The notes beneath the pieces were generated by a model. The model ran no database searches, had not been told where the DNA came from, and saw only the letters and a list, made by a program, of their open reading frames with translations. Of a stretch of DNA of 64,000 nt, positions 4,513 through 59,933 are shown one piece after another. Position numbers and translations under genes: made by a program. Position 1 is the first letter of the stretch. Each line of letters begins with the position of its first letter. The DNA is from an uncultured Clostridia bacterium (GTDB lineage Bacteria; Bacillota; Limnochordia; Darwinibacteriales; DTU012): positions 4,006 through 68,005 of the forward strand of contig FIZJ01000011.1 in NCBI GenBank assembly GCA_900019385.1, given 5' to 3'.

Positions 4513-5157
4513 ATGCACCGTTATCACAGCAAGTTAGCAGCGCTGCTTGTCATTGTACTTATGATTGGGTTGTCCGGTTCCGCGGCAGCCCACAATGTCT
4601 TTGGTTCGACAGGGTTGATCAACATACCGACGGCGTCAGTGGCTCCCAGTGGATCGTTCAGCGCCGCCTATCATTTGTTCGGGGGCGGAAGCCATCTCTC
4701 GATGATTCTGGGCGCGTTTCCAAACGTGGAAGTGGGGCTTGTGTCCCGCTTCGGAGAACCTGGCGCCGGGTTTTTCGGCAGTGTCAAAGTGCAGCTCCTC
4801 CAGGAAGGTGACTACCCGGGGGTTGCCGTTGGACTGACTACCAACGGCGATACGGCCAGTTATTATATTGTGGGGAGCATGCAGATCGGCGCGCCGGGGA
4901 TCCGCGGCCATATTGGTTTTGGTTCAGGCCAGTTCAGCCGGGGGTTTGCCGGAATCAGCAGTGTCCTCAACCCTGTGACAGTCATCAGCAGCGACCGGAA
5001 GTTCAGCATGCCTGTAACGACCGTGATCGTGGAGACTGACGGATGGCGGATCAACACCGGTCTGTCTCTGAAGTTCAACCAGGAATTGTCGGCCAAAGTG
5101 ATGGTTTCGGGCTTTAAGGACTTCGGTTTTGGAGTGAGTTATTCCCATCGTTTCTAG
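4513..5157 (+). CDS. Short YjbH-like outer-membrane beta-barrel protein
   Basis: Signal peptide ending AAA-HN. TGLINIPTA plus VKVQLLQEGDYPGVAVGLTTNGDT follow the recalled YjbH pattern (GL...P.A ... K.qLl.E....PalAvG..D..G). The C-terminus is YSHRF. Confidence 0.5.
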   Translation: MHRYHSKLAALLVIVLMIGLSGSAAAHNVFGSTGLINIPTASVAPSGSFSAAYHLFGGGSHLSMILGAFPNVEVGLVSRFGEPGAGFFGSVKVQLLQEGDYPGVAVGLTTNGDTASYYIVGSMQIGAPGIRGHIGFGSGQFSRGFAGISSVLNPVTVISSDRKFSMPVTTVIVETDGWRINTGLSLKFNQELSAKVMVSGFKDFGFGVSYSHRF

Positions 5158-5172
5158 GATGGAGGGTCTCAA

Positions 5173-5952
5173 ATGATGAGAAGGATCGGGTTTGCGGGAC
5201 TAGTTGTGCTGCTTTTGCTTGTCTTGGGAAGCACAGGTTCAGCTTTTAACCCAAACGCGGCTGTCGACGGCAATATCAGCCGCGCCAACCGCAATCCTGC
5301 GGGATTGATGGGGTTGAAAACCCCAGAATTCGGCTTCCAGCTGCGAATTGTTTCACAAGAATCCGGGGAAGAAGCGGAAGCAGGCGAGCCTGCTACCTAC
5401 TCCCGGCAGTATCATCTGCTCTATGCCGAACCAGACTATGGGACCGGAGCCGGGCTGCTCCATTTCATCTACAGTGATTCCCTCAGGCAGATAACTTATG
5501 CCGTCGCCGATGATCTGGCGGGTAGGGTCAACGCCGGCCTGTCCCTAAAGTATATCAACATTCCCGGAGAAGAGAGCAAGTATGTCAGCACCGATTTAGG
5601 CCTCCAGGTAGGAGATTTTTACCTGTTCCGCCTCGGTGTTCTGGTGGAGAACTTCTGGCATCTCAAAGTCGGCGAAACGGAAGCAGCCCTGCCCACCAAC
5701 GTTGTGCTGGGCGCCGCAGTCAGGCTGGGGGAATTTGGTACAGCTACGGTGGATGTCAATGATGTCCTCAACGCCAATTCCGCCAGAAAGCTGATGCTGG
5801 GAGTGGAAATCAAACCCTTTCGGTTCTTGACGCTCAGGGCCGGATGGGACGAAGGTTGGACAGCAGGAGCAGGGTTTGTATACCGCCAAATCAAGCTTGG
5901 TTATGACTGGGCCCAAGGGCAGCATCATTTAAGTTTCCGCTGGCAGTTCTAA
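5173..5952 (+). CDS. Putative outer-membrane beta-barrel protein (NPAGL motif)
   Basis: Signal peptide, an N-terminal NPAGL motif as in several OM barrel families, alternating beta-strand-like pattern, and C-terminal SFRWQF. Confidence 0.45.
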   Translation: MMRRIGFAGLVVLLLLVLGSTGSAFNPNAAVDGNISRANRNPAGLMGLKTPEFGFQLRIVSQESGEEAEAGEPATYSRQYHLLYAEPDYGTGAGLLHFIYSDSLRQITYAVADDLAGRVNAGLSLKYINIPGEESKYVSTDLGLQVGDFYLFRLGVLVENFWHLKVGETEAALPTNVVLGAAVRLGEFGTATVDVNDVLNANSARKLMLGVEIKPFRFLTLRAGWDEGWTAGAGFVYRQIKLGYDWAQGQHHLSFRWQF

Positions 5953-49070: not shown

Positions 49071-49093
49071 CGCGCTAAGCCCCGGCTTTTTTT
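49063..49093. terminator. Palindromic hairpin spanning the stop codons of degU and the convergent HD gene
   Basis: GGGCTTAGC-GC-GCTAAGCCC followed by CGGCTTTTTTT on the plus strand. TAG (49068-70) and CTA (49075-77) lie in opposite arms. Confidence 0.5.
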
Positions 49094-49785
49094 AGTTGGG
49101 GATGCTGCCCCAAATGGCCTAAAAGCTCAAGCCCGTTGATCACCAGGCGGAAGCGGCACCCAAGCATGGCCGCGGCTTCTTTGCACATGTTCATCCGGTT
49201 GAGATATATTTCGAAGTAATCCATGATTTGGCATGATGACTGGTCGAACTGAATCTCCAGGGTGATCGTCTTGGCGCGGGCGTCCACCGACACCTGGGAG
49301 TCGGTGATGGCCAGGTTGACCCGGTCGTGGATGTTCATCCCAGGCTGATCCGCGTCAATCGCCCGGTTCACCCTGGTGCGGTGGGCGTCACTCTTGTCGG
49401 CAATGATCAGAGCGGCGGTAATCGGTGTGACTGCTTTTCCGATCTCTTCCTCATGGTTGGCGATGGCGGTTGTGATCTCACAGATTTCCGCCAGGTCCAT
49501 GCCCATTTCCCTAAGCTCCATGAACACCAGATTGGCGCCGGTGACACTATGGTGTTTGCGGTTGTGCATGTTGCCGATGTCGTGGAGGTATCCGGCGATT
49601 GCCCCCAGTTCAACGGTGCGGGCGTCAAAACCAAGCTCCGCCAGGATGGCTGCGGTGGTGTTAGCCACGTAAGTGACATGCCGCATCCCGTGTTCTGTAT
49701 ATCCTCGCGCAGTCAGGTAATCGCAGGCGCGTTCGATCATCAACTGGAAGTTGGGGTTGCTGCGGACATCGTTGAGAGTGATCAT
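49075..49785 (-). CDS. HD-domain phosphohydrolase
   Basis: HG.RH......TA..I, YLHDIGN and ..H are HD-superfamily metal ligands. SD GGAGGG lies 5 nt upstream of ATG 49785. I saw no HD-GYP motif. Confidence 0.75.
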   Translation of the reverse strand: MITLNDVRSNPNFQLMIERACDYLTARGYTEHGMRHVTYVANTTAAILAELGFDARTVELGAIAGYLHDIGNMHNRKHHSVTGANLVFMELREMGMDLAEICEITTAIANHEEEIGKAVTPITAALIIADKSDAHRTRVNRAIDADQPGMNIHDRVNLAITDSQVSVDARAKTITLEIQFDQSSCQIMDYFEIYLNRMNMCKEAAAMLGCRFRLVINGLELLGHLGQHPQLKKAGA

Positions 49786-49870
49786 CAAATCCCTCCTCGG
49801 GTATTTTTCTTATTATAAAACATTATTCTTGTTTCAGCCATAGTCCCAGAAAAATAGGACCATTGCCTGA

Positions 49871-49899
49871 TTAAATTCCTGAAAAACCCATGTTAAGAT
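49871..49899 (+). promoter_or_regulatory. Candidate promoter for the flp leader
   Basis: TTAAAT, 17 nt spacer, TGtTAAGAT (extended -10). The transcript would start ~10-15 nt before the riboswitch-like element. Confidence 0.3.
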
Positions 49900-49917
49900 T
49901 ACATTACAAAAAACATA

Positions 49918-50002
49918 ACTCCGAAAAGGTAAACTTACCGAAAGGTAAGGACACAAAGCCACGGGTCTAAGGCTTCAGTGCTATGACAGCCGGGCTGCCG
50001 AA
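49918..50002 (+). ncRNA. c-di-GMP-I (GEMM-I) riboswitch-like aptamer
   Basis: AAAAGGUAAAC-UUACC-GAAA-GGUAAG-GACACAAAGCCACGGGUCUAA...AUGACAGCCGGGCUGCCGAAG parallels the V. cholerae Vc2 aptamer as I recall it (AGGGCAAACC-AUUC-GAAA-GAGU-GGGACGCAAAGCCUCCGGCCUAA...UAGCGGGGUUACCGAUGG). This includes the GNRA-capped first hairpin and the ACRCAAAGCC junction. Not verified by covariance search. Confidence 0.65.
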
Positions 50003-50019
50003 GAACTCTCTGTACATTT

Positions 50020-50044
50020 GGGCACCCGTGGAGTGCCCTTTTTT
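50020..50044 (+). terminator. Expression-platform terminator between the aptamer and flp
   Basis: GGGCAC-CCGTGGA-GTGCCC followed by TTTTTT, 40 nt upstream of the flp ATG. Its 5' arm and loop (ACCCGTGG, 50024-50031) are perfectly complementary to CCACGGGT (49959-49966) in the aptamer. Confidence 0.7.
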
Positions 50045-50084
50045 CGGCTCGCGGAGTGGCAAAAACTGTGAGGAGGGAAAGAAC

Positions 50085-50264
50085 ATGTTGGCTCAGCTGA
50101 AGCGTCTGCTGTTCGACGAAAGCGGACAAGGCATGGTTGAGTACGGGTTGATTCTTGCGTTGATCGCCATCGTGGTGATCGGGGCATTAGTAGTCTTGGG
50201 CCCCAAGATTGCGGACATATTCAGAAGCATCGGAGATGAAATCGACGGAATCTCAGGAACATAA
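50085..50264 (+). CDS. flp: Flp family type IVb pilin
   Basis: 59 aa starting at ATG 50085 (SD GAGGAGGG). The Flp motif is GQG-MVEYGLILALIAIVVIGAL. The longer track ORF would read through the leader terminator. Confidence 0.85.
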   Translation: MLAQLKRLLFDESGQGMVEYGLILALIAIVVIGALVVLGPKIADIFRSIGDEIDGISGT

Positions 50265-50353
50265 CTCCCCTATAGCTAAAACCAATGCGCAGAGCGGCAG
50301 CCAAAAATCCCGCCCCCCAGGCTGCCGCTTTTGCACCCAACGGAGGGAAAGCT

Positions 50354-50878
50354 GTGGATCTGATAAAGGCGGTGCTGCTATCCGCACTCATTCTGGCATG
50401 TTACTATGATGGCCGCAGTCGGATTATCCCCAACAAACTGACTGCCGCGCTGATGGCAGCCGGGCTTGTGACCAATGTGGTCTTTTCGGGCTGGCAGGGG
50501 CTGCTCTTTTCATTGGCGGGGTTCGCGGCAGGCCTCTTGATCCTGTTCGTCCCCTTTTGTCTGGGCGGTATCGGTGCCGGCGATGTGAAGCTTTTGGCAG
50601 CCATCGGCAGCCTGCTGGGCCCTGCTTTTGCCGCTGCTTCTTTCTTGTATGGAGCAATCATCGGCGGGGTTTGGGCGGTGGTTGTCCTGATCAGGCAAAA
50701 GAGCTTGATCCAGTCCCTCAAAGTGGCGGGATACCGGCTGGCAATCTTGGCAAGCGGTCAGAAAATAACCGCTCCGCCGCTTCACACTTTTTCCTCCGGG
50801 AACAACTGGGGGTTTCCCTACGGCATAGCTATCTCTTTGGGAGCGGCAGCCGCCATGGTGCTGGGATTTCCGTTCTAG
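50354..50878 (+). CDS. cpaA: Prepilin peptidase CpaA/TadV (A24 family)
   Basis: GTG 50354 has SD GGAGGG 6 nt upstream. YYDGRSRIIPN (first Asp) and GGIGAGDVKLLAAIG (second Asp). It has five or six TM segments. Confidence 0.8.
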   Translation: MDLIKAVLLSALILACYYDGRSRIIPNKLTAALMAAGLVTNVVFSGWQGLLFSLAGFAAGLLILFVPFCLGGIGAGDVKLLAAIGSLLGPAFAAASFLYGAIIGGVWAVVVLIRQKSLIQSLKVAGYRLAILASGQKITAPPLHTFSSGNNWGFPYGIAISLGAAAAMVLGFPF

Positions 50879-50890
50879 GGGGGAAGGCAG

Positions 50891-51283
50891 GTGCTGTGCA
50901 GAGTTCTTGGCCGCGAACAAGGCCAGGCCTTGGTGGAACTGGCCGTTACCCTAACCGTGCTTTTACTGATCATTTTCGGCATCATCGAGTTTTCCCGCAT
51001 CGGCTACACATACATCCTGGTGGCCCATGCCAGCCGGGAGGGCGCCCGGGTCGGAGCCCTAAGGCAGTCGGACGACCAGATTTATCTGGCGGTAAATGAC
51101 GCGCTGGCGGGTATCGGCAATGTTCCGATCATGGTCTCGATTGACCCCAACGATACTCGGCGCTACAGGCGCCAACCCGTGGCTGTGCAGGTCACTGTGC
51201 AGCTGCCGCTTTTGACACCACTGAGCGTGCTGCTGCCGGATCCGTTTCCAATCAAGTGCAAGACTGTGATGCGCGTGGAGTGA
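50891..51283 (+). CDS. tadE: TadE-like pseudopilin
   Basis: GQALVELAVTLTVLLLIIFGIIEFSR is the TadE N-terminal motif. 130 aa. Confidence 0.7.
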   Translation: MLCRVLGREQGQALVELAVTLTVLLLIIFGIIEFSRIGYTYILVAHASREGARVGALRQSDDQIYLAVNDALAGIGNVPIMVSIDPNDTRRYRRQPVAVQVTVQLPLLTPLSVLLPDPFPIKCKTVMRVE

Positions 51284-51295
51284 GGGTGGAACGAG

Positions 51296-52198
51296 ATGGG
51301 TAAGTTCAAAGATGAATCAGGCGTCATTCTGGTGCTGGTAGTGGCAGGCATGACCGCCTTTCTCGGCTTGTTGGGCCTGGTGATTGACCTGGGCCAAATC
51401 TATATGGAACGAGTGCGTTTATCCCGGGCGGTGGACGCGGCGGTTTTCGCCGGCGTCCAGGAACTGCCGGGGCAGCCCGAGCAGGCGGTGGCCAAGGCTT
51501 ACGAATACAGCCAAGCCAACAACGTCGCGGTGGAAAATGTCGAGGTTAAACTCGGCAACGGCAACCGCTTGATCAACGTCAGGGCGGAAAAGCGGGTCAA
51601 GCTCTATCTGCTTGGTCTGTTTGGATACAAGGACTATCCTGTTTCAGCCGAAGCCGCGGCGGTGGTGGGAGCGGCTTCCGGAGTAAGCGGCGTGATCCCG
51701 GTTGGTGTCCCCTGGCAGGACTTTGAGTTTGGGCAATCAGTGATCCTCAAATACGACCCCCATTCCGGCGGGAGCCAGCAGGGGAACTTCGGAGCCTTGG
51801 CCTTGGGAGGGACAGGCGCCAACAACTACCGCAACAACCTGAAGTACGGCTACCAGGGTGTGCTGCGGGTTGGGGATCAGGTGTACACCGAGCCGGGCAA
51901 CATGGCTGGGCCCACCCGGGACGGAGTGAAGTACCGGCTGCAGCAGGCAGGGGACGGAGCCGGGCTCAAATGGTACGAACACAACGCCCGTGTAGCGATC
52001 GTGCCGATTGTGGACAGCTTCGATGTCAAGGGGCGGGATTTGGTGACGATTGTGGGATTTGCCGCCTTTTACCTGGAGGACGTGGAGGCCAAGGGGAATG
52101 ATGCCACGATCAGAGGCAGATTCATCCGCCTTGTCATTGACGGCGAAATCGCGGCCGGGCCTGATTACGGGCTCCTTGCTTATCAGCTGATTAAGTAG
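51296..52198 (+). CDS. tadG: TadG-like pilus assembly protein
   Basis: N-terminal hydrophobic segment ILVLVVAGMTAFLGLLGLVIDLGQIY..R..L..A.DAA..AG, typical of the TadG/TadE-G-like family. Confidence 0.65.
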   Translation: MGKFKDESGVILVLVVAGMTAFLGLLGLVIDLGQIYMERVRLSRAVDAAVFAGVQELPGQPEQAVAKAYEYSQANNVAVENVEVKLGNGNRLINVRAEKRVKLYLLGLFGYKDYPVSAEAAAVVGAASGVSGVIPVGVPWQDFEFGQSVILKYDPHSGGSQQGNFGALALGGTGANNYRNNLKYGYQGVLRVGDQVYTEPGNMAGPTRDGVKYRLQQAGDGAGLKWYEHNARVAIVPIVDSFDVKGRDLVTIVGFAAFYLEDVEAKGNDATIRGRFIRLVIDGEIAAGPDYGLLAYQLIK

Positions 52199-52215
52199 GC
52201 TGGGAGGGTATAAAC

Positions 52216-53076
52216 GTGAAAAGCAAAGTTCTGCTGTTTATTGCACTGAGCTTGGGGCTTATTTCCGCTTTTTTGACATATAACTACCTGACCGGCCTGA
52301 CTGCTGTCCAAGATGCGGAAATGGTGGATGTGGTGGTTGCCCTTACGAAAATTCCGGCCAACACCGAGATCCGCGCCAACATGCTCGCCTGGAAAAAAAT
52401 CCCCAAAGAAGCACTCCACCCTGACGCGGTCCAGAACCTTCAGGACGCCCAAGGCAGAATCACCGCCAACGACATCTTTGCCGGAGAACAGGTGCTGTGG
52501 AGCCGGCTGCTGCCGAAAGGGACAGTGCCCGGACTTTCCTACAATATTCCCGAGGACAAGCGGGCAGTCACTGTCGCCGTCAATGAGGTGATCGGCGTCG
52601 CTGGGTTCATCAAACCTGGGGACAAGGTGGATGTGATTGCCACCTTTGCTTTTGATCCACCCCAGTCCACCACCATCCTGCAAAATGTGACTGTCCTGGC
52701 CATCGCCCAAGAGATGCAGAGCGACGCGGAACAAAAGGCCAAACTGAGCACCAGTGTCACTTTCGCCTTAAGCCCCAGCCAGGCGGAACGGCTGGTGCTG
52801 GCGGAATCCCTGGGAGAAATCCGCTTGGCATTAAGGCCGCCCCAGGCGGTGGGCATTGCTTCCGCCAAAGGCACCACAGCCCATGACATCGTACCCCTGG
52901 CTTACAGCAAACATGGGGACACTCTGGCCGAGCGGCACGAAGTCGCTTCAAAATCCGAGCCTGCTCAAGCCTCGTCCAGCTCAGCGCCGGTGGCTTTACC
53001 GCTTGACATGAAGGATGGAATCGAGATCGAAATATACCGGGGGACAAGGCGGGAGGTGCAGCTGGTTCATGAATAG
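52216..53076 (+). CDS. cpaB: Flp pilus assembly protein CpaB/RcpC (SAF domain)
   Basis: N-terminal TM and a SAF-like block (VVVA...IPA.T.I....L....IP). RAVTVAV.EV.GVAGFI.PGD.VDV is typical of CpaB. Confidence 0.8.
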   Translation: MKSKVLLFIALSLGLISAFLTYNYLTGLTAVQDAEMVDVVVALTKIPANTEIRANMLAWKKIPKEALHPDAVQNLQDAQGRITANDIFAGEQVLWSRLLPKGTVPGLSYNIPEDKRAVTVAVNEVIGVAGFIKPGDKVDVIATFAFDPPQSTTILQNVTVLAIAQEMQSDAEQKAKLSTSVTFALSPSQAERLVLAESLGEIRLALRPPQAVGIASAKGTTAHDIVPLAYSKHGDTLAERHEVASKSEPAQASSSSAPVALPLDMKDGIEIEIYRGTRREVQLVHE

Positions 53077-55534
53077 GCCTGGCGCTTGTGTGAGGTTTTT
53101 ATTGATTGTCTTATCCATGCAGTTATTGGTTTCAGGCTCGGCCTTTGCATATGACGAGCAGCTGATTCTGGTCCAGGGACAAAGCAGAATCCTGCGTTTG
53201 GATGACATCGTCCGGGCAGCCGTCGGGGATCCGGCGGTGGTGGATGTAGCGGCAGTCGACTCACAGCAGCTGCTGCTCAACCCTCTGCGGGTGGGTATTA
53301 CTTCCCTCCATGTCTGGCAGCGCACTCGGCAGAAAGAGTATCAGCTGCGGGTTGTCGCCGATGACGGCACGCTGCTTCAGGAGTTCCTGACTGTCTTGAA
53401 CCTGCCCCATGTGTCGGCTTGGTTCGCCCACGGGCACCTGGTCCTGGAAGGGCAAGTCAGCAGCGAAAGCGAGAAGGAGCGGGCCGAGAAACTGGCTGGA
53501 GCCTATGCCGATGCTGTGATCAGCCTGCTGCGCCATCCCACGGACGATTCGTCCCAGCAGCTTAAGCAGGAGCTGCGGCGCCTGATTCCACCCGAAATCC
53601 AGCTGACATTTTTGCAAAGCACTGTGATTCTGGAAGGCCGGGCTGAAAGCGACGCCGAGCGCCATTTAGCCTGCCGTTTGGCGGAAGCCTTGGGTTACCA
53701 GGTGATCGATTTGATTGAGGTAGACTCAGAACCTGACGCTGGAATCGCCGCGCCGGCCGCCCCTGAGCCGGAGGACGCCGACGGCGCGGCCGAACCTGCC
53801 GTGCTTGCGGCGCAGATCAAAGAGGCCATCGGCGATGACCTAACGGTGTACATTGTCGGAGAGACTGTGTTTCTGGAAGGCTGGGCCGCCGATTCGTACC
53901 GCAAGGAACGGGCTGCCGCCATTGCCAAAGCCTTTGGCATGCCGGTGGTGGATTTGATTCAGGTCGACGAGCCAGAACCAAAACCAAAACCAGTAGAGGC
54001 AGAACCGCCGGAACACGTGGACGATGGCGCCAGGCAGCTTGTGGATCAGCTGAACCGCCTAATTGCCAACCCGGCTGTCAGTGCTCGGATTATCCACGGT
54101 TATTTGATCCTCGAAGGCCGGGTGGAGTCCGAATGGGAAAAAACACGGACGCTGCTGTTGGCGCAAGTCGCCGGGCTTCCGGTGATTGATCTGATCACGG
54201 TTTCGTCCCCCATACCAGACCGGCCTGATCTGGACGCGGTTTCCGTCCTGGCCGGAGACGATCCGCCGCAGCCCCCTGAAAAACAACTGGAGGAACTTCT
54301 GGAAGGGACAGGAGTCAGTGCCCGGTGGATCGGCGGCACACTGATTCTGGAAGGAGCGGTGGAAGATGAATTCGCCAAGACAAAAGCGGCCGCCCTTGGT
54401 GAAGCTTTTGCGGACAAGGTAGTAGACTTGATTCGGATCCGGCAGCCGGTGGAGGTTGTACCTTTGGAACCAGGCCAGTTTGCCGAGTTACTGGTCAGAG
54501 ACGTGGCAGCAGCCCTTCAGGAACCGGGTGTCACTGTTCGCTTGTACCAAGATACGCTGGTTTTGGAAGGGATTGTGCCCGACGCCAAGGCCAAAGAGAG
54601 GGCTGAACGCCTGGCGTCGGTGTTTTACCAACCGGTGATTAGTTTTATCGATTACCCACAGCCGGGCCAAGTCAGCAGTGCCGATCAGCTCGCATTCCAT
54701 CTCGGCTTGGAATCAGTCCGGGTGACAGCGGTAGGAACCAGCCTGGTTTTGGAAGGAACGGTTCAAAATGCCCGGGAACACAGCCGGGTTATGCAAATCG
54801 CCCAGCTTTACGGCGATGTGGTTGATTTGCTCGTCGTTGAACAGCCGGAACAGGTGCTGCTCCAGGTTCACGTGGTGGAACTGGATCGGAGCGCCGGCAC
54901 TGAGCTCGGTATCAATTGGGGAAGCCTGATTTACGGCCTCAATTTCATTGCCGATGTGATCCAGTTTGAAGAGGTGGCACATATCGGCAGTTGGCAGATG
55001 AACCGTTCACATCCGCTGGGAGCGCAGCTGACGGCCTTGGAAAAGGAAGGCAAAGCCAAGCTGTTAGCGGCCCCGGCCCTGCTCACAGTGTCGGGACAGC
55101 CGGCTTCGTTCCTGGCAGGTGGCGAGATTCCCCTGGTGCTGGACTTCGGGGATCAGCAAGCGGTGGAATGGGTTGAATATGGTGTGAAACTGAACATCCT
55201 TCCTCTGGTGGAAGGAGAACAGGTAAGGATCCATATCCAGCCGGAAGTAAGCAGCATCGATTGGAACACCAGCGACCGCCTCCAGTCCCGGAACCCGGCT
55301 CTGAACACGCGCCGCACTGATACCACTGTAAACCTTGAGCACGGATCCACTGTTGTGATCAGCGGGTTGATTCAGCGCCAGGAAAGCACGGAGATCAAAA
55401 AAATTCCCATCCTGGGGGATCTGCCGATCTTAGGCACTCTCTTCCGCAGCAGAGAGTATCAAGACAAACAAACCGAGCTCGTAATCTTTGTGACTCCATG
55501 GATCATCGGCGAGGAGGTGAGCAAAGATGGCTGA
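53069..55534 (+). CDS. cpaC: Tad secretin CpaC/RcpA with expanded N-terminal BON-like repeat region
   Basis: ATG 53069 (SD GGGAGGTG) overlaps the cpaB end. Signal peptide. The pilus-formation N-domain reads L.LV.GQSRIL.L....R.AVGDP.V.DV. Seven L.LEG repeats follow. The secretin core is LLA.P.L....GQ.ASFLAGGE.P..., ending KIPILGDLPILG.LFRS......TELVIFVTP. Confidence 0.85.
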   Translation: MNRPGACVRFLLIVLSMQLLVSGSAFAYDEQLILVQGQSRILRLDDIVRAAVGDPAVVDVAAVDSQQLLLNPLRVGITSLHVWQRTRQKEYQLRVVADDGTLLQEFLTVLNLPHVSAWFAHGHLVLEGQVSSESEKERAEKLAGAYADAVISLLRHPTDDSSQQLKQELRRLIPPEIQLTFLQSTVILEGRAESDAERHLACRLAEALGYQVIDLIEVDSEPDAGIAAPAAPEPEDADGAAEPAVLAAQIKEAIGDDLTVYIVGETVFLEGWAADSYRKERAAAIAKAFGMPVVDLIQVDEPEPKPKPVEAEPPEHVDDGARQLVDQLNRLIANPAVSARIIHGYLILEGRVESEWEKTRTLLLAQVAGLPVIDLITVSSPIPDRPDLDAVSVLAGDDPPQPPEKQLEELLEGTGVSARWIGGTLILEGAVEDEFAKTKAAALGEAFADKVVDLIRIRQPVEVVPLEPGQFAELLVRDVAAALQEPGVTVRLYQDTLVLEGIVPDAKAKERAERLASVFYQPVISFIDYPQPGQVSSADQLAFHLGLESVRVTAVGTSLVLEGTVQNAREHSRVMQIAQLYGDVVDLLVVEQPEQVLLQVHVVELDRSAGTELGINWGSLIYGLNFIADVIQFEEVAHIGSWQMNRSHPLGAQLTALEKEGKAKLLAAPALLTVSGQPASFLAGGEIPLVLDFGDQQAVEWVEYGVKLNILPLVEGEQVRIHIQPEVSSIDWNTSDRLQSRNPALNTRRTDTTVNLEHGSTVVISGLIQRQESTEIKKIPILGDLPILGTLFRSREYQDKQTELVIFVTPWIIGEEVSKDG
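53372..54844 (+). repeat. Seven tandem BON-like coding repeats with Pro/Glu-rich linkers inside the secretin gene
   Basis: The repeat cores are HLVLEGQVSSESEKERAEKLA, VILEGRAESDAERHLACRLA, VFLEGWAADSYRKERAAAIA, LILEGRVESEWEKTRTLLLA, LILEGAVEDEFAKTKAAALG, LVLEGIVPDAKAKERAERLA and LVLEGTVQNAREHSRVMQIA. Each is followed by ..V[IV]DLI.V. The linkers are EPDAGIAAPAAPEPEDADGAAEP and EPEPKPKPVEAEPPE. Confidence 0.75.
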
Positions 55535-56717
55535 CGGCACCATTCAAGTCCTGATAGTCGATGATGTGGCCGAGACCAGGCACAACATCCGCAAACTGCT
55601 GGAATTCGAGGCTGACATCTGCGTTGTCGGCGAAGCCGCCGACGGCCGCGAGGCTCTGGCCTTGGCCAAGGAACTTCAGCCCGACTGCGTCCTGATGGAC
55701 ATCAACATGCCCGGCTTGGACGGTATCAGCGCCACTGAACGGATCTACCAAGTGGCTCCCGACTGCCTGCCGATTGTCATCAGCGTCCAGGGCGAACAGG
55801 AATACCTGCGGAAAGCTATGCTGGCCGGCGCCAGAGACTACCTGGTCAAACCCTTCAGCGGCCAGGAGTTGGTGAACACGATCCGCCAGGTGTACAGTCT
55901 CGAACAGGCCAGGCGCAGCCTGCAGAAGGATGCCCAGGCCAACCGCAGCGCCCAGGTGATCGTGGTTTTCAGCGCCAAGGGCGGTGTAGGCAAGACCACC
56001 ATCGCCACCAACCTCGCCGCAGGTCTGAGCAGGCAGCAGCGGGAAGTGATCCTCGTCGACCTGGACCTGCAGTTCGGGGATGTGCCGCTCCTTCTCAACC
56101 TCAAGTTGAAGCGCTCCATGGCCGACTGGCATCATGACGGTCGGGAGGCCATCGAAGATTATCTGATCCAGCATGAAAGCGGGCTGCGGGTTTTCGCCTC
56201 GCCCCAAACCCCGGAACAGGGCGAACTGATCACCGGAGAACACGTCAGCCAGATGATCACCGAGCTGAAACCCCTCGCTGATTTCCTGGTGATTGACACT
56301 CCGCAGTTTTTCCACGAAACGACGCTGCAGAGCCTTGAACTGGCGGACAAAATCCTGCTGGTGGCTACCCCCGACCTGCCCAACCTGAAGAATGTCAAGT
56401 GCTGTCTGGATGTGCTGTCCAGGCTGAATATGGCCGGCAAAGTGCAGATTGTCGCCAACAAGGTCGGCGCCAACGGGATCAAGGTTGAACAGTTCAGTTC
56501 CTATCTCCAGCAGCCCGTTTGGCAGCGGGTGCCGTACGACCTTAAGCTGGCGACGCAGGCGGCGATCCAAGGCATTCCCGCTGTGATGCTGAATCCCAGA
56601 GCTTCACTCAGCCGGAGCCTGGCGCGGATCAGCAGAGAATTTGTGGAGCCTCATCCAGGAAGCCGGGAAGCCGCAGTGAAGGTGCCGCTGGTCAGAATGC
56701 TGTTTGCAAGGAGATGA
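55527..56717 (+). CDS. cpaE: CpaE/TadZ-like ParA/MinD ATPase fused to an N-terminal receiver (REC) domain
   Basis: REC domain VLIVDDV.ETR..I..LL.......VGEA.DG.EAL.LA.EL.PD.VLMDINMPGLDGI. The deviant Walker A is FSAKGGVGKTT. ATG overlaps the secretin stop. Confidence 0.8.
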   Translation: MADGTIQVLIVDDVAETRHNIRKLLEFEADICVVGEAADGREALALAKELQPDCVLMDINMPGLDGISATERIYQVAPDCLPIVISVQGEQEYLRKAMLAGARDYLVKPFSGQELVNTIRQVYSLEQARRSLQKDAQANRSAQVIVVFSAKGGVGKTTIATNLAAGLSRQQREVILVDLDLQFGDVPLLLNLKLKRSMADWHHDGREAIEDYLIQHESGLRVFASPQTPEQGELITGEHVSQMITELKPLADFLVIDTPQFFHETTLQSLELADKILLVATPDLPNLKNVKCCLDVLSRLNMAGKVQIVANKVGANGIKVEQFSSYLQQPVWQRVPYDLKLATQAAIQGIPAVMLNPRASLSRSLARISREFVEPHPGSREAAVKVPLVRMLFARR

Positions 56718-56723
56718 TCGCCC

Positions 56724-58043
56724 ATGTCGTTACTGGCCCGTTTGGAACGGCAGAAAGAACGGGAAGAGCAAAAACAGCAAACCAACCTTGCTTCCGGCAG
56801 ACAGGCGGATCCTTTTGTCAAGCTGAAAGGCCGAATCCATGAACAGCTCGTAAGCGAGATCGACAGCAAACTGTTGAAAAGCATCGACCACAACAGCAAG
56901 ACTCAGGAGTTGAAGGACAAGGTCAGCCAGGTTGTGCAGCGGGTGATCAGCGAACAACAGCTAACACTCACCCGCGCCGAAAGCCAACAGCTGCTGAACC
57001 AAATTATTGACGAAGTCATTGGTTTTGGGCCCATCAATTCCCTAATCCTCGACCCGGAAATCTCCGAGATCATGGTGAACGGCCCCAAACAGGTATTTGT
57101 GGAGCGCGGCGGCTGTCTGGAGCTGACAGAAATTACTTTCCGAGACAATGAACATGTGATGCATATCATTGAAAAAATGGTGGCGCCGCTGGGGAGAAGA
57201 ATCGATGAAAGCAGTCCCATGGTCGACGCCCGGCTGCCTGACGGCTCCAGGGTAAACGCCATTATTCCTCCTCTGGCCCTGGGCGGGCCCACCATCACCA
57301 TCCGGAAATTCTCTGCCAACCCTCTGACGGTGGAGGACTTGATCAATTTCGGGACTCTCACTCCGGAGGTGGCCGAGTTTCTTGCCGCCTGTGTCCAGGC
57401 CCGGCTGAACATTGTTGTGTCCGGAGGCACCGGCAGCGGCAAGACTACGCTGCTGAACGTGCTGTCATCTTTCATCCCCACCGATGAGCGGATTGTCACC
57501 ATTGAAGACGCGGCGGAACTGAGGCTCAGGCAGACACATGTGGTGTCTCTGGAAAGCCGCCCGCCGAATATCGAAGGGAAAGGCGCGGTGACGATCCGGG
57601 ATCTGGTCCGCAACTCTCTGCGGATGCGCCCCGATCGGATCGTCATCGGCGAGGTGCGGGGAGGAGAAGCCCTCGATATGCTGCAGGCCATGAACACAGG
57701 CCACGACGGTTCCCTCACCACCGGGCACGCCAACTCCCCCAGGGACATGCTGGCCAGGCTGGAGACGATGGTGCTGATGGCGGGCATGGACCTGCCGGTG
57801 AGGGCAATCCGGGAACAGATTGCTTCCGCGATTGACCTGATCGTCCAGCAGGCCCGCCTCAAGGATGGATCCCGGAAAGTAGTGCAAATTACGGAGGTGC
57901 AGGGAATCGAGGGTGAAGTGATTACCATGCAGGATATATTTGCTTATGAGCGGGGTGCGCTGCGGGCGACGGGCATCAGGCCGAAATGTGCCGAAACAAT
58001 CGCCGCTCGTGGTATCAAACTGCCCGCCAGCCTGTTTATGTGA
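56724..58043 (+). CDS. cpaF: Tad secretion ATPase CpaF/TadA (VirB11-like)
   Basis: GFGP...L..DP..SEIMVNG, Walker A SGGTGSGKTT, IEDAAEL, RPDRI..GE.RG.EA.DMLQAMNTGH.GS..T.H and TEV.G.EG. Confidence 0.92.
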   Translation: MSLLARLERQKEREEQKQQTNLASGRQADPFVKLKGRIHEQLVSEIDSKLLKSIDHNSKTQELKDKVSQVVQRVISEQQLTLTRAESQQLLNQIIDEVIGFGPINSLILDPEISEIMVNGPKQVFVERGGCLELTEITFRDNEHVMHIIEKMVAPLGRRIDESSPMVDARLPDGSRVNAIIPPLALGGPTITIRKFSANPLTVEDLINFGTLTPEVAEFLAACVQARLNIVVSGGTGSGKTTLLNVLSSFIPTDERIVTIEDAAELRLRQTHVVSLESRPPNIEGKGAVTIRDLVRNSLRMRPDRIVIGEVRGGEALDMLQAMNTGHDGSLTTGHANSPRDMLARLETMVLMAGMDLPVRAIREQIASAIDLIVQQARLKDGSRKVVQITEVQGIEGEVITMQDIFAYERGALRATGIRPKCAETIAARGIKLPASLFM

Positions 58044-59041
58044 CCGGCTGCGCCGGGACATGCGGGTTTGCCGAGGTGAACGCTGTGATCCCTATTCTCA
58101 TAGCCGCCCTTGTTTTTTGGGCTGTATTCCTAATCTGCTTCGCAGCCGCCGACAAACTGCGGAAAAAGCTGCTGGTGGAAAACCGCATTCGTGTTTTCAT
58201 CCCCGGGCCTGGGATTGATGAGGGTGACGGAGATGATCAGGACAAGGTTCATGTCCTGCAGCGGCTTTTGGGGTGGCTGACCCGGAAGCTGAAGCTCAAA
58301 CCATCCCGGAGACTGGCGCTGGAGTTGATGCGCGCCGATATTCCCTTATCCGCAGGTGAGTTCCTAGTCCTCAACGTTATGCTTGGGCTTCTGCCCCTAT
58401 TTTTGGTTTTGTTCGGCTACAGCGTTGAGTTCTGCCTGCTGCTTGCATTAGGTGCGCTCTTGGCTCCTTCCGCTGTTGTCAAATTGAGGCAGAAGAAACG
58501 GATGCATCTAATCGAAACGCAGCTGCCGGAAGTGCTTGGAATTATTGCCAATTCCCTCAAGGCAGGATACAGTTTCTTTCAAGCTATCGAATTGGTTTCC
58601 CGGGAGTCCAAGCCACCCCTGGCCAGTGAGTTCGCTTTGGTCAACAAAGAAATGAACTTGGGGGCCACGACGGAGCTGGCGCTGGAAAACATGGTCGAGC
58701 GGGTGGGCAGTGATGATCTGGACCTGGTGGTGACGGCGGTGCTGATACAGCGGCAGGTGGGAGGCAATCTTTCGGCGATTCTGGAGTCCATTGCCGAGAC
58801 CATCAGGGAGCGGATCCGGATCCGGGGTGAAATCAGGTCTTTGACCGCCCAGGGCCGTATTTCCGGGTTGATCATCTCGGTGCTGCCCTTCTTGATCGCC
58901 GGGTTCATTTTTGTTGTGCATCCAGAATACATCATGCCGTTGTTTGTCGAACCCTTGGGCCGCATCATGCTGGGTATGGGGATAGGCGGCCAGTTCCTGG
59001 CTGTGCTGATGATAAAGAAAATTACCAACATCCGGGTTTAG
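58040..59041 (+). CDS. tadB: Tad inner-membrane platform protein TadB
   Basis: T2SSF-like block LP..L..IA.SL.AG.S...A.......... and ..DL......I.RQ.GGNL..IL. The start is uncertain: GTG 58040 overlaps the cpaF stop, and GTG 58076 is an alternative. Confidence 0.8.
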   Translation: MTGCAGTCGFAEVNAVIPILIAALVFWAVFLICFAAADKLRKKLLVENRIRVFIPGPGIDEGDGDDQDKVHVLQRLLGWLTRKLKLKPSRRLALELMRADIPLSAGEFLVLNVMLGLLPLFLVLFGYSVEFCLLLALGALLAPSAVVKLRQKKRMHLIETQLPEVLGIIANSLKAGYSFFQAIELVSRESKPPLASEFALVNKEMNLGATTELALENMVERVGSDDLDLVVTAVLIQRQVGGNLSAILESIAETIRERIRIRGEIRSLTAQGRISGLIISVLPFLIAGFIFVVHPEYIMPLFVEPLGRIMLGMGIGGQFLAVLMIKKITNIRV

Positions 59042-59051
59042 GAGGCGCTTT

Positions 59052-59933
59052 ATGATTTTTGTGGTTTCAGTCATAGTGTTTGTATCCGTGAGCACTGCTG
59101 CCTATGCCGGCTACCGCCTTTGGCAGCAGCGGCAGATCGTCAAAGAACGCTTCAGTTTGTACAGGGAAAGCGCCGAGGAAGATCAGGAACAACCTGAGAC
59201 ACCTGCGGCCGGGAGCCGGTTCAAGCAGGGATTGACAAAACTTGCATCGCTTTTGGTTGTCAAGGAGCAAAAGCCTCGCTGGCAAAAGCTGCGTCGTCAG
59301 CTGCTTCTCGCCGGCGAGCCGGGCAAACTCAAACCCCAGGAGTTTATCGTGCTCAAACTAGTGATTTCCGCCCTGACATGCATCATAGGCTTCATCTTAC
59401 CAATACCGCTGTCACAGGTAGCTCTGCTGCTGGCCTTTAGCTGGCTGGTTCCCGATCTCTATCTGCAGCAGCGGATCAGGAAACGTCAGCAGGACATCAC
59501 CCTGGCCATCCCCGACATCCTCGATCTGCTTACGGTCAGCGTGGAGGCAGGCCTCGGGTTCGATGCCGCTGTTGCCAGGGTGGTGGACAAGGCCGAAGGC
59601 CCGCTGGCGGAGGAGCTTGGGCGGATGCTTTATGAAATGCGGATCGGCAGGCCCCGCCGGGATGCGCTCAGGGACTTGAGCGAGCGGACCGGCGTCGGTT
59701 ACCTGCAAAATTTTGCCGCAGCGGTGATTCAAGCCGACCAACTGGGAGTGAGCATCAGCAAAGTGCTGCGTATCCAGTCCCAGGATATCCGCCGCCAAAG
59801 GCGGCAAAAGGCGGAGGAAGAAGCGATGAAAGCTCCTATCAAAATGCTGCTTCCCCTGGTGGGCCTGGTGTTTCCCTCGCTGTTCATCATCTTGTTGGGA
59901 CCCTCGATTCTGCACTTTATGTCCGCGTTTTAG
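59052..59933 (+). CDS. tadC: Tad inner-membrane platform protein TadC
   Basis: LPD.LDLL...VEAGLGFD.A..RV and R.EAL..L..R....L..F..A.IQA..LG.S...VLR.QS, the T2SSF domain of TadC type. Confidence 0.8.
   Translation: MIFVVSVIVFVSVSTAAYAGYRLWQQRQIVKERFSLYRESAEEDQEQPETPAAGSRFKQGLTKLASLLVVKEQKPRWQKLRRQLLLAGEPGKLKPQEFIVLKLVISALTCIIGFILPIPLSQVALLLAFSWLVPDLYLQQRIRKRQQDITLAIPDILDLLTVSVEAGLGFDAAVARVVDKAEGPLAEELGRMLYEMRIGRPRRDALRDLSERTGVGYLQNFAAAVIQADQLGVSISKVLRIQSQDIRRQRRQKAEEEAMKAPIKMLLPLVGLVFPSLFIILLGPSILHFMSAF

Follow-up and report, generated by a model that had tools for sequence, protein, structure and literature searches.

The leader of the flp pilin gene raises two questions: whether it carries a riboswitch for c-di-GMP and, if so, in which direction the ligand would act on the Tad/Flp pilus operon that follows. 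In the window (the whole stretch of 64,000 nucleotides that was analysed) we find that the 5′ leader of flp-tad contains a class I c-di-GMP riboswitch of the standard type, which most likely functions as a transcriptional OFF switch.

The leader precedes flp (50085-50264, + strand), which encodes a Flp/Fap pilin of 59 amino acids (Pfam Flp_Fap, E = 1.2e-10). The remaining Tad operon follows on the same strand (50354-59933). Its genes, identified through Pfam, NCBIfam and the gene predictions of identical loci, specify an A24 prepilin peptidase, TadE, a TadG-like protein, CpaB/RcpC, a secretin with BON domains, CpaE with a receiver domain, the CpaF ATPase, TadB and TadC, and the operon is complete. 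The secretin has 839 amino acids and three BON domains, and the receiver domain of the CpaE-like ATPase is N-terminal (53015-56717). The gap that separates flp from the prepilin peptidase gene contains a strong hairpin, GCGGCAGCC-N17-GGCUGCCGC, followed by U4 (50294-50332, + strand; -28.2 kcal/mol, z = -4.6). It is probably a partial terminator by which the amount of pilin transcript is set relative to that of the assembly machinery. Upstream of the leader are degS, degU and a divergent HDIG-domain gene, and downstream of the operon are genes for a DUF192 protein, a comFA-like helicase, a comFC-like phosphoribosyltransferase, a zinc-ribbon protein and flgM. The neighbourhood with degSU, the comFA-like and comFC-like genes and flgM is of the Bacillota type. 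Since the operon encodes a secretin, the lineage is apparently diderm, and the locus suggests that the host belongs to a diderm lineage of Bacillota that is abundant in anaerobic digesters. An identical Flp sequence is present in hundreds of assemblies, the majority of which are metagenomes and MAGs from anaerobic digesters, and the same leader and synteny were present in all nine identical-Flp loci that were fetched. The divergent neighbour (49075-49788, - strand) encodes an HDIG-domain metalloprotein that is kept in all orthologous loci; it was considered as an HD-GYP phosphodiesterase and rejected, as it matches HDIG only and the GYP motif is absent. A motif search for GGDEF, EAL, HD-GYP and PilZ within the window gave spurious matches only, a result with little bearing on the whole genome.

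Orthologous loci were found through homologs of the adjacent peptidase, at 76%, 74%, 66% and 50% peptidase identity. The gene order degS-degU-HD-flp-peptidase-tadE occurs in all of them, which together with the window makes five lineages. The five distinct leaders (that of the window and L090, L094, L097 and L098) all keep the aptamer with its A47, the terminator and the extended -10 element. Four of these leaders are closely related to one another, so that the comparative support amounts to about two independent lineages.

A putative promoter is located at 49871-49899 (+ strand). It consists of a -35 element TTAAAT (49871-49876), a spacer of 17 nt, within which lies the TG of an extended -10, and a -10 element TAAGAT. 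The extended -10 reads TGTTAAGAT at 49891-49899, and TGNTAAGAT forms invariant alignment columns in five of five orthologous leaders. The promoter was not called by the consensus scan because its -35 element is weak. Judged from these elements, transcription probably starts at about 49906. At the other end of the leader, the ribosome-binding site GAGGAGGG (50070-50077, + strand) lies 7 nt (50078-50084) before the ATG of flp and is conserved in the alignment. Upstream of the promoter an imperfect palindrome, GTCCCA-N6-TAGGAC, can be read from the sequence at 49843-49860. A palindrome of the form GTCCYA-N6-TAGGAC is present in all orthologs, some 45-60 bp ahead of the point where the flp leader is predicted to start, and it is perfect in L090 (AGTCCTAT/ATAGGACT, 2489-2508) and in L098 (GTCCTA/TAGGAC, 2470-2487). 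It may be a candidate operator for some transcription factor and thus a second layer of control.

The earlier note, which was made from the sequence alone, had called a c-di-GMP-I (GEMM-I)-like riboswitch in this leader and had proposed a covariance-model search as a check. The class call was right. An Rfam scan (cmscan) of the whole window gave one match above gathering score, a GEMM-I match of full model length at 49919-50003 (+ strand) with 75 bits and an E-value of 6e-16, against a gathering score of 59. A further match of clan CL00126 above its own gathering score is also present at the window aptamer and is presumably that of RF01051. The sequence blocks which the note had quoted are all there between 49924 and 50003: AAAAGGTAAAC, CTTACC-GAAA-GGTAAG, GACACAAAGCC, and ACGGGTCTAA ... 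ATGACAGCCGGGCTGCCGAAG. The aptamer is built from a P1 helix (49919-49923 with 49999-50003), a P1a helix (49929-49954) with a GAAA tetraloop at 49940-49943, and a P2 helix (49957-49996), all on the + strand. P2 contains a tetraloop receptor, UCUAAG at 49966-49971 and UAUGA at 49982-49986, and both halves agree with the RF01051 consensus CUAAg...uAuGa. The aptamer thus has the GNRA tetraloop and the receptor of a type 1 GEMM. Alignment to the model and to the RF01051 consensus places G49928, A49955 and C49998 at the columns which we take, from the crystal structures of the Vc2 aptamer, to be G20, A47 and C92. With these bases at the three columns, the contact triple is the standard G-A-C.

P1, P1a and P2 show structure-preserving variation among the five distinct sequences, four of which are close relatives. 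Compared to the window, L098 has a C-G instead of a U-A closing pair in P1a, a U-A instead of a C-G pair inside P1a and three G.U substitutions in P2, and the helices are preserved by these compensatory and wobble changes. The aptamer shares with RF01051 and the Vc2 aptamer of Vibrio cholerae the three-helix fold, the contacts G20, A47 and C92, the docking of the GNRA tetraloop into a receptor in the other arm, and conserved blocks that are nearly identical. It differs from the RF01051 consensus in the junction between P1 and P1a, which is one nucleotide shorter (CCGAAAAGG), a common variant found for example in L106, L146 and L177, and in the closing pair of P1a, which is U-A and not C-G. Furthermore, P2 has a short distal stem, and the expression platform is a Rho-independent terminator. 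The aptamer belongs to GEMM-I: its c-di-GMP contact bases are the standard ones, and it has a GNRA tetraloop with its receptor.

The label that Rfam gives to the aptamer points elsewhere at first sight. The best clan model for the window was not RF01051 but RF03167, the rare ‘c-di-GMP-I-GGC’ model, whose gathering score is the one exceeded above. RF03167 reportedly represents a variant of class I, and if the window belonged to it, the leader would sense an altered or unknown ligand. We took the definition of the GGC variant from the two model consensus lines. The core consensus of RF01051 (GGACGCAAAgCc) and that of RF03167 (GGACGCGAAgCc) differ only in the A47 column, with A in the former and G in the latter (GCAAAG vs GCGAAG; RF03167 model consensus GACGCGAAgCc). 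This junction base is the equivalent of A47 in the Vc2 structure. The window shares the scaffold of the variant and scores 75 bits on its model, but it reads GGACACAAAGCC, with A at 49955 (within GACACAAAGCC) in place of the defining G, and all five orthologous leaders have A as well. Seven plainly A-type aptamers (L097, L111, L116, L122, L146, L163 and L177) are also labelled RF03167, and in a control run the label fell on 7 of 12 A-type aptamers; the only true G-type example was L194, with 68 bits. Since ordinary A-type aptamers receive the same label, a score against RF03167 is not diagnostic on its own. A pattern scan of metagenomes supplied a control set of generic GEMM-I aptamers, without close relatives, and A47 was present in 121 of its 122 members. 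Among the orthologs, L097 is labelled RF03167 whereas L090, L094 and L098 are labelled RF01051, with 87.6, 96.4 and 76.1 bits (gathering score 35). Distal P2 is left out of the RF03167 model, which therefore favours sequences such as that of the window, where this part is short and atypical. The label is a product of the choice between related models, and membership of the window in the variant class is extremely unlikely. More generally, variant annotations taken from nothing but the best hit within the clan are unreliable; ordinary A47-type aptamers were called RF03167 here.

Two other doubts about the function of the aptamer can be weighed on similar grounds. A cGAMP-sensing (GEMM-Ib) or promiscuous cyclic-dinucleotide riboswitch would be conceivable in a tad leader, as GEMM-I aptamers with A at the G20 column occur in tad loci of other Bacillota (L019 and L023). 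A change from G20 to A is said to be the main determinant of cGAMP selectivity. The window has G49928 within AAAAGGUAAAC, as opposed to AAAAAAGCAAAC in L019 and L023, and G is found at this column in all orthologs (AAAGG[U/C]AAAC). Since the column holds G and not A, the window lacks the cGAMP-type signature, and sensing of cGAMP by this leader is implausible in the extreme. The host lineage is uncultured, and the leader could also be a decaying, non-functional relic of a riboswitch. Against this stand the high covariance-model score and the contact bases and tertiary-contact motifs, which are all intact. Moreover, across lineages in which peptidase identity falls to 50%, the leader has stayed conserved as the linker diverged, and there are substitutions that preserve structure; a relic therefore seems very unlikely, and we regard the aptamer as a c-di-GMP-I aptamer of the ordinary kind.

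The distribution of such leaders was surveyed in two ways. The orthologous leader was absent among the listed matches of a CpaF search (identity of 67% or less), and among these matches GEMM-I aptamers occurred near tad genes in L019 and L023 only. L019 has aptamers at 4819-5015 (a tandem pair) and at 5470-5557, and L023 has them at 5280-5373 and 5518-5604. AAAAAAGCAAAC, with A at the G20 column as in a cGAMP-type or promiscuous signature, occurs in the tandem pair of L019 and in the second aptamer of L023; the third aptamer of L019 has G20 and lies directly before flp (5646-5792). The Flp protein of L023 is very similar to that of the window. Among 111 unselected metagenomic GEMM-I aptamers, none was followed by a Flp-like ORF. 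The pairing of GEMM-I with flp thus appears uncommon, as it is missing from this sample, yet recurrent, as the tad loci of L019 and L023 carry GEMM-I.

How the aptamer would be coupled to flp depends on the terminator behind it. An intrinsic terminator, GGGCAC / CCGUGGA / GUGCCC followed by U6, is located at 50020-50044 (+ strand) between the aptamer and the ORF, with a hairpin of -9.3 kcal/mol. The terminator scan agrees here with the earlier note, which had read GGGCAC-N7-GTGCCC (50020-50038) and T6 (50039-50044) from the sequence and placed the end of the U-tract at a distance of 40 nt from the flp start codon (50085); its gap of 18 nt between the end of the aptamer (50003) and the terminator (50020) is, however, actually 16 nt. 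The terminator is kept on the same strand in five of five leaders, with hairpins of -8.5 to -9.6 kcal/mol in four of them and -15.5 kcal/mol in L094 as the exception. Its 5′ arm, GGCACC, is invariant in the five leaders and its 3′ arm has C-to-U wobble changes; both the 3′ arm and the linker to the aptamer diverge, the linker freely. An invariant 5′ arm together with a varying 3′ arm fits a strand that has two pairing partners.

Two registers of such alternative pairing can be recognized. Since L098 was misaligned around the terminator in the MAFFT alignment, antiterminators were compared by duplex energies per sequence and not by counting pairs column by column. The first register, AT1, is that of the earlier note, whose 8-nt complementarity is exact: CCACGGGT (49959-49966) is the reverse complement of ACCCGTGG (50024-50031), so that in the RNA CCACGGGU of the 5′ strand of P2 (+ strand) pairs with ACCCGUGG. 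The AT1 duplex of the window has -16.1 kcal/mol compared to a mean of -8.0 kcal/mol when the 5′ half of the terminator was shuffled (p = 0.005). AT1 is present in the window, L090, L094 and L097 (-16.1, -12.5, -15.0 and -12.5 kcal/mol; p = 0.005-0.03). The strong pairing between aptamer and terminator that the note had proposed thus stands for four leaders, but its register is lost in L098, the most divergent one (-6.1 kcal/mol). The second register, AT2, has CGGG(C)UGCC at 49991-49999 (+ strand) as its 5′ strand, which spans the 3′ strand of P2, the junction with the C92 equivalent and the first base of the 3′ strand of P1, and pairs with GGCACCCG at 50021-50028. It takes up five of the six bases of the terminator 5′ arm. 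The AT2 duplex has -14.1 to -15.3 kcal/mol in five of five leaders (p = 0.017-0.107 vs shuffles), energies to be read with the caveats that GC-rich 13-mers readily find partners in a GC-rich aptamer and that reversed-sequence controls reached -13.5 and -14.4 kcal/mol in the window and L094. AT2 is stronger than the terminator hairpin in four of the five leaders, L094 being the exception.

In folds ending at the terminator loop, the 5′ arm and loop pair into the strands of P2 in all five leaders (ddG -4.7 to -11 kcal/mol). In full context the ddG advantage is modest, with 20 to 61 of 300 shuffles as good as the real antiterminator (p = 0.07-0.2 per leader) and 26 of 300 for the window. For the window, the state with aptamer and terminator (-35.4 kcal/mol) and the antiterminated state (-39.5 kcal/mol) are close. 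Whole-leader MFE folds were noisy and differed between orthologs and were not used as evidence alone. It seems more likely that AT2 is the core antiterminator and that AT1 adds to it in most lineages, because AT2 is conserved in all five leaders and uses the C92 equivalent and the 3′ strand of P1, which the ligand would fix. Apart from these registers, a stretch made up of the aptamer's 5′ flank and its first junction (ACUCCGAAAA, 49918-49927) can pair with 50041-50057 (UUUUCGG ... CGGAGU; -11.7 kcal/mol), and the equivalent helix in L098 is spelled differently, with 10 bp between AUCCGAUAAA and UUUAUUGGAU (-11.2 kcal/mol). In readthrough transcripts this could be a chance pairing of A-rich with U-rich sequence or a helix that locks readthrough.

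From these elements the following mechanism can be proposed. RNA polymerase would start from the extended -10 promoter near 49906, and the aptamer (49919-50003) would fold first. Without c-di-GMP, P1 and the junction would remain loose, and the terminator 5′ arm and loop (50021-50031) would pair into the aptamer through AT2, AT1 or both, so that the terminator hairpin is blocked and RNA polymerase could read into flp. With c-di-GMP, the ligand would be held by G49928, A49955 and C49998, P1 and P2 would be locked and the competing strands hidden, and GGGCAC/GUGCCC with U6 would form and stop transcription after about 139 nt. Since the energies of the two states of the window are close, the ligand could plausibly tip the balance. 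The layout is that of an OFF switch because the terminator lies wholly outside the aptamer and only strands within the aptamer can compete with it, and on the strength of this architecture we consider OFF polarity probable.

The main alternative accepts the aptamer as real but regards it as an ON switch or a translational switch, with the terminator as a constitutive attenuator or one that is relieved by the ligand. In its favour, c-di-GMP usually promotes adhesion and pili, and the switch in the pilA1 leader of C. difficile is of class II and ON (Bordeleau et al., 2015, cited in PMC6916266). That switch resembles the window leader in directly controlling the gene for a pilin from the type IV filament superfamily, but it belongs to class II with an unrelated fold, it is ON, and it serves a type IVa system, whereas the window has a Tad/Flp (type IVc) system. 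The moderate statistics of the antiterminators also speak for the alternative. In an ON design the ligand typically hides a terminator arm, which it cannot do here as both arms lie outside the aptamer behind a 16-nt linker, and the only conserved sequences that compete with the terminator lie in strands of the aptamer which would be buried in the ligand-bound fold. Translational effects are conceivable because the 5′ strand of P1, ACUCC, is complementary to a downstream sequence containing GGAG; yet the ribosome-binding site (50070-50077) is 26-33 nt past the U-tract, and a conserved anti-RBS sequence was not identified. Altogether an ON or translational switch is unlikely, and the transcriptional OFF switch remains the preferred reading. 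The reading as a whole, in which c-di-GMP switches the Tad/Flp pilus operon OFF in an uncultured, apparently diderm digester Bacillota through invasion of the aptamer by the terminator 5′ arm in two alternative registers, has in our view a little better than an even chance of being correct.

The earlier note had called OFF polarity unexpected for an adhesion pilus. It is less surprising when compared to other class I switches, which in Clostridia are typically terminator-type OFF switches, such as Cd1 in the flgB leader of Clostridioides difficile. In Cd1, c-di-GMP reportedly favours termination. Cd1 and the window leader both combine a class I aptamer with an intrinsic terminator in front of a large surface-organelle operon in Bacillota. 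However, Cd1 controls flagellar genes and the window leader a Tad/Flp pilus, and OFF control has an experimental basis in Cd1 and an architectural one here.

Pilus genes as such are not new among the targets of this RNA class. In what follows we take cpaA to be the Flp prepilin peptidase family. Among the recurrent GEMM-regulated gene families, the first GEMM paper already gives cpaA, pilM, pilO, pilQ and further pilus genes (Weinberg et al., 2007, Table 2, PMC1950547). Neither flp itself nor the lineage of the window appears there, and a c-di-GMP riboswitch tied specifically to flp was not found in the literature searched.

The window leader is a further example of a well-known RNA class, and standard annotation would find its aptamer. 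It provides a clean and conserved case of riboswitch control of a Tad/Flp pilus. The points of modest interest are the predicted repression of Tad, the better-conserved antiterminator register AT2 and the misleading GGC label; otherwise, the leader bears out existing knowledge of the c-di-GMP-I class. For annotation, the label is a warning that calls of the GGC variant should be checked at the diagnostic nucleotide, given the competition between models within the Rfam clan. For the organism, the prediction is that c-di-GMP represses Tad/Flp pili in this digester lineage. If true, this would reverse the usual rule, by which adhesins are induced by c-di-GMP, and the pili would belong to a motile or exploratory programme at low c-di-GMP, next to degSU, comF and flgM.
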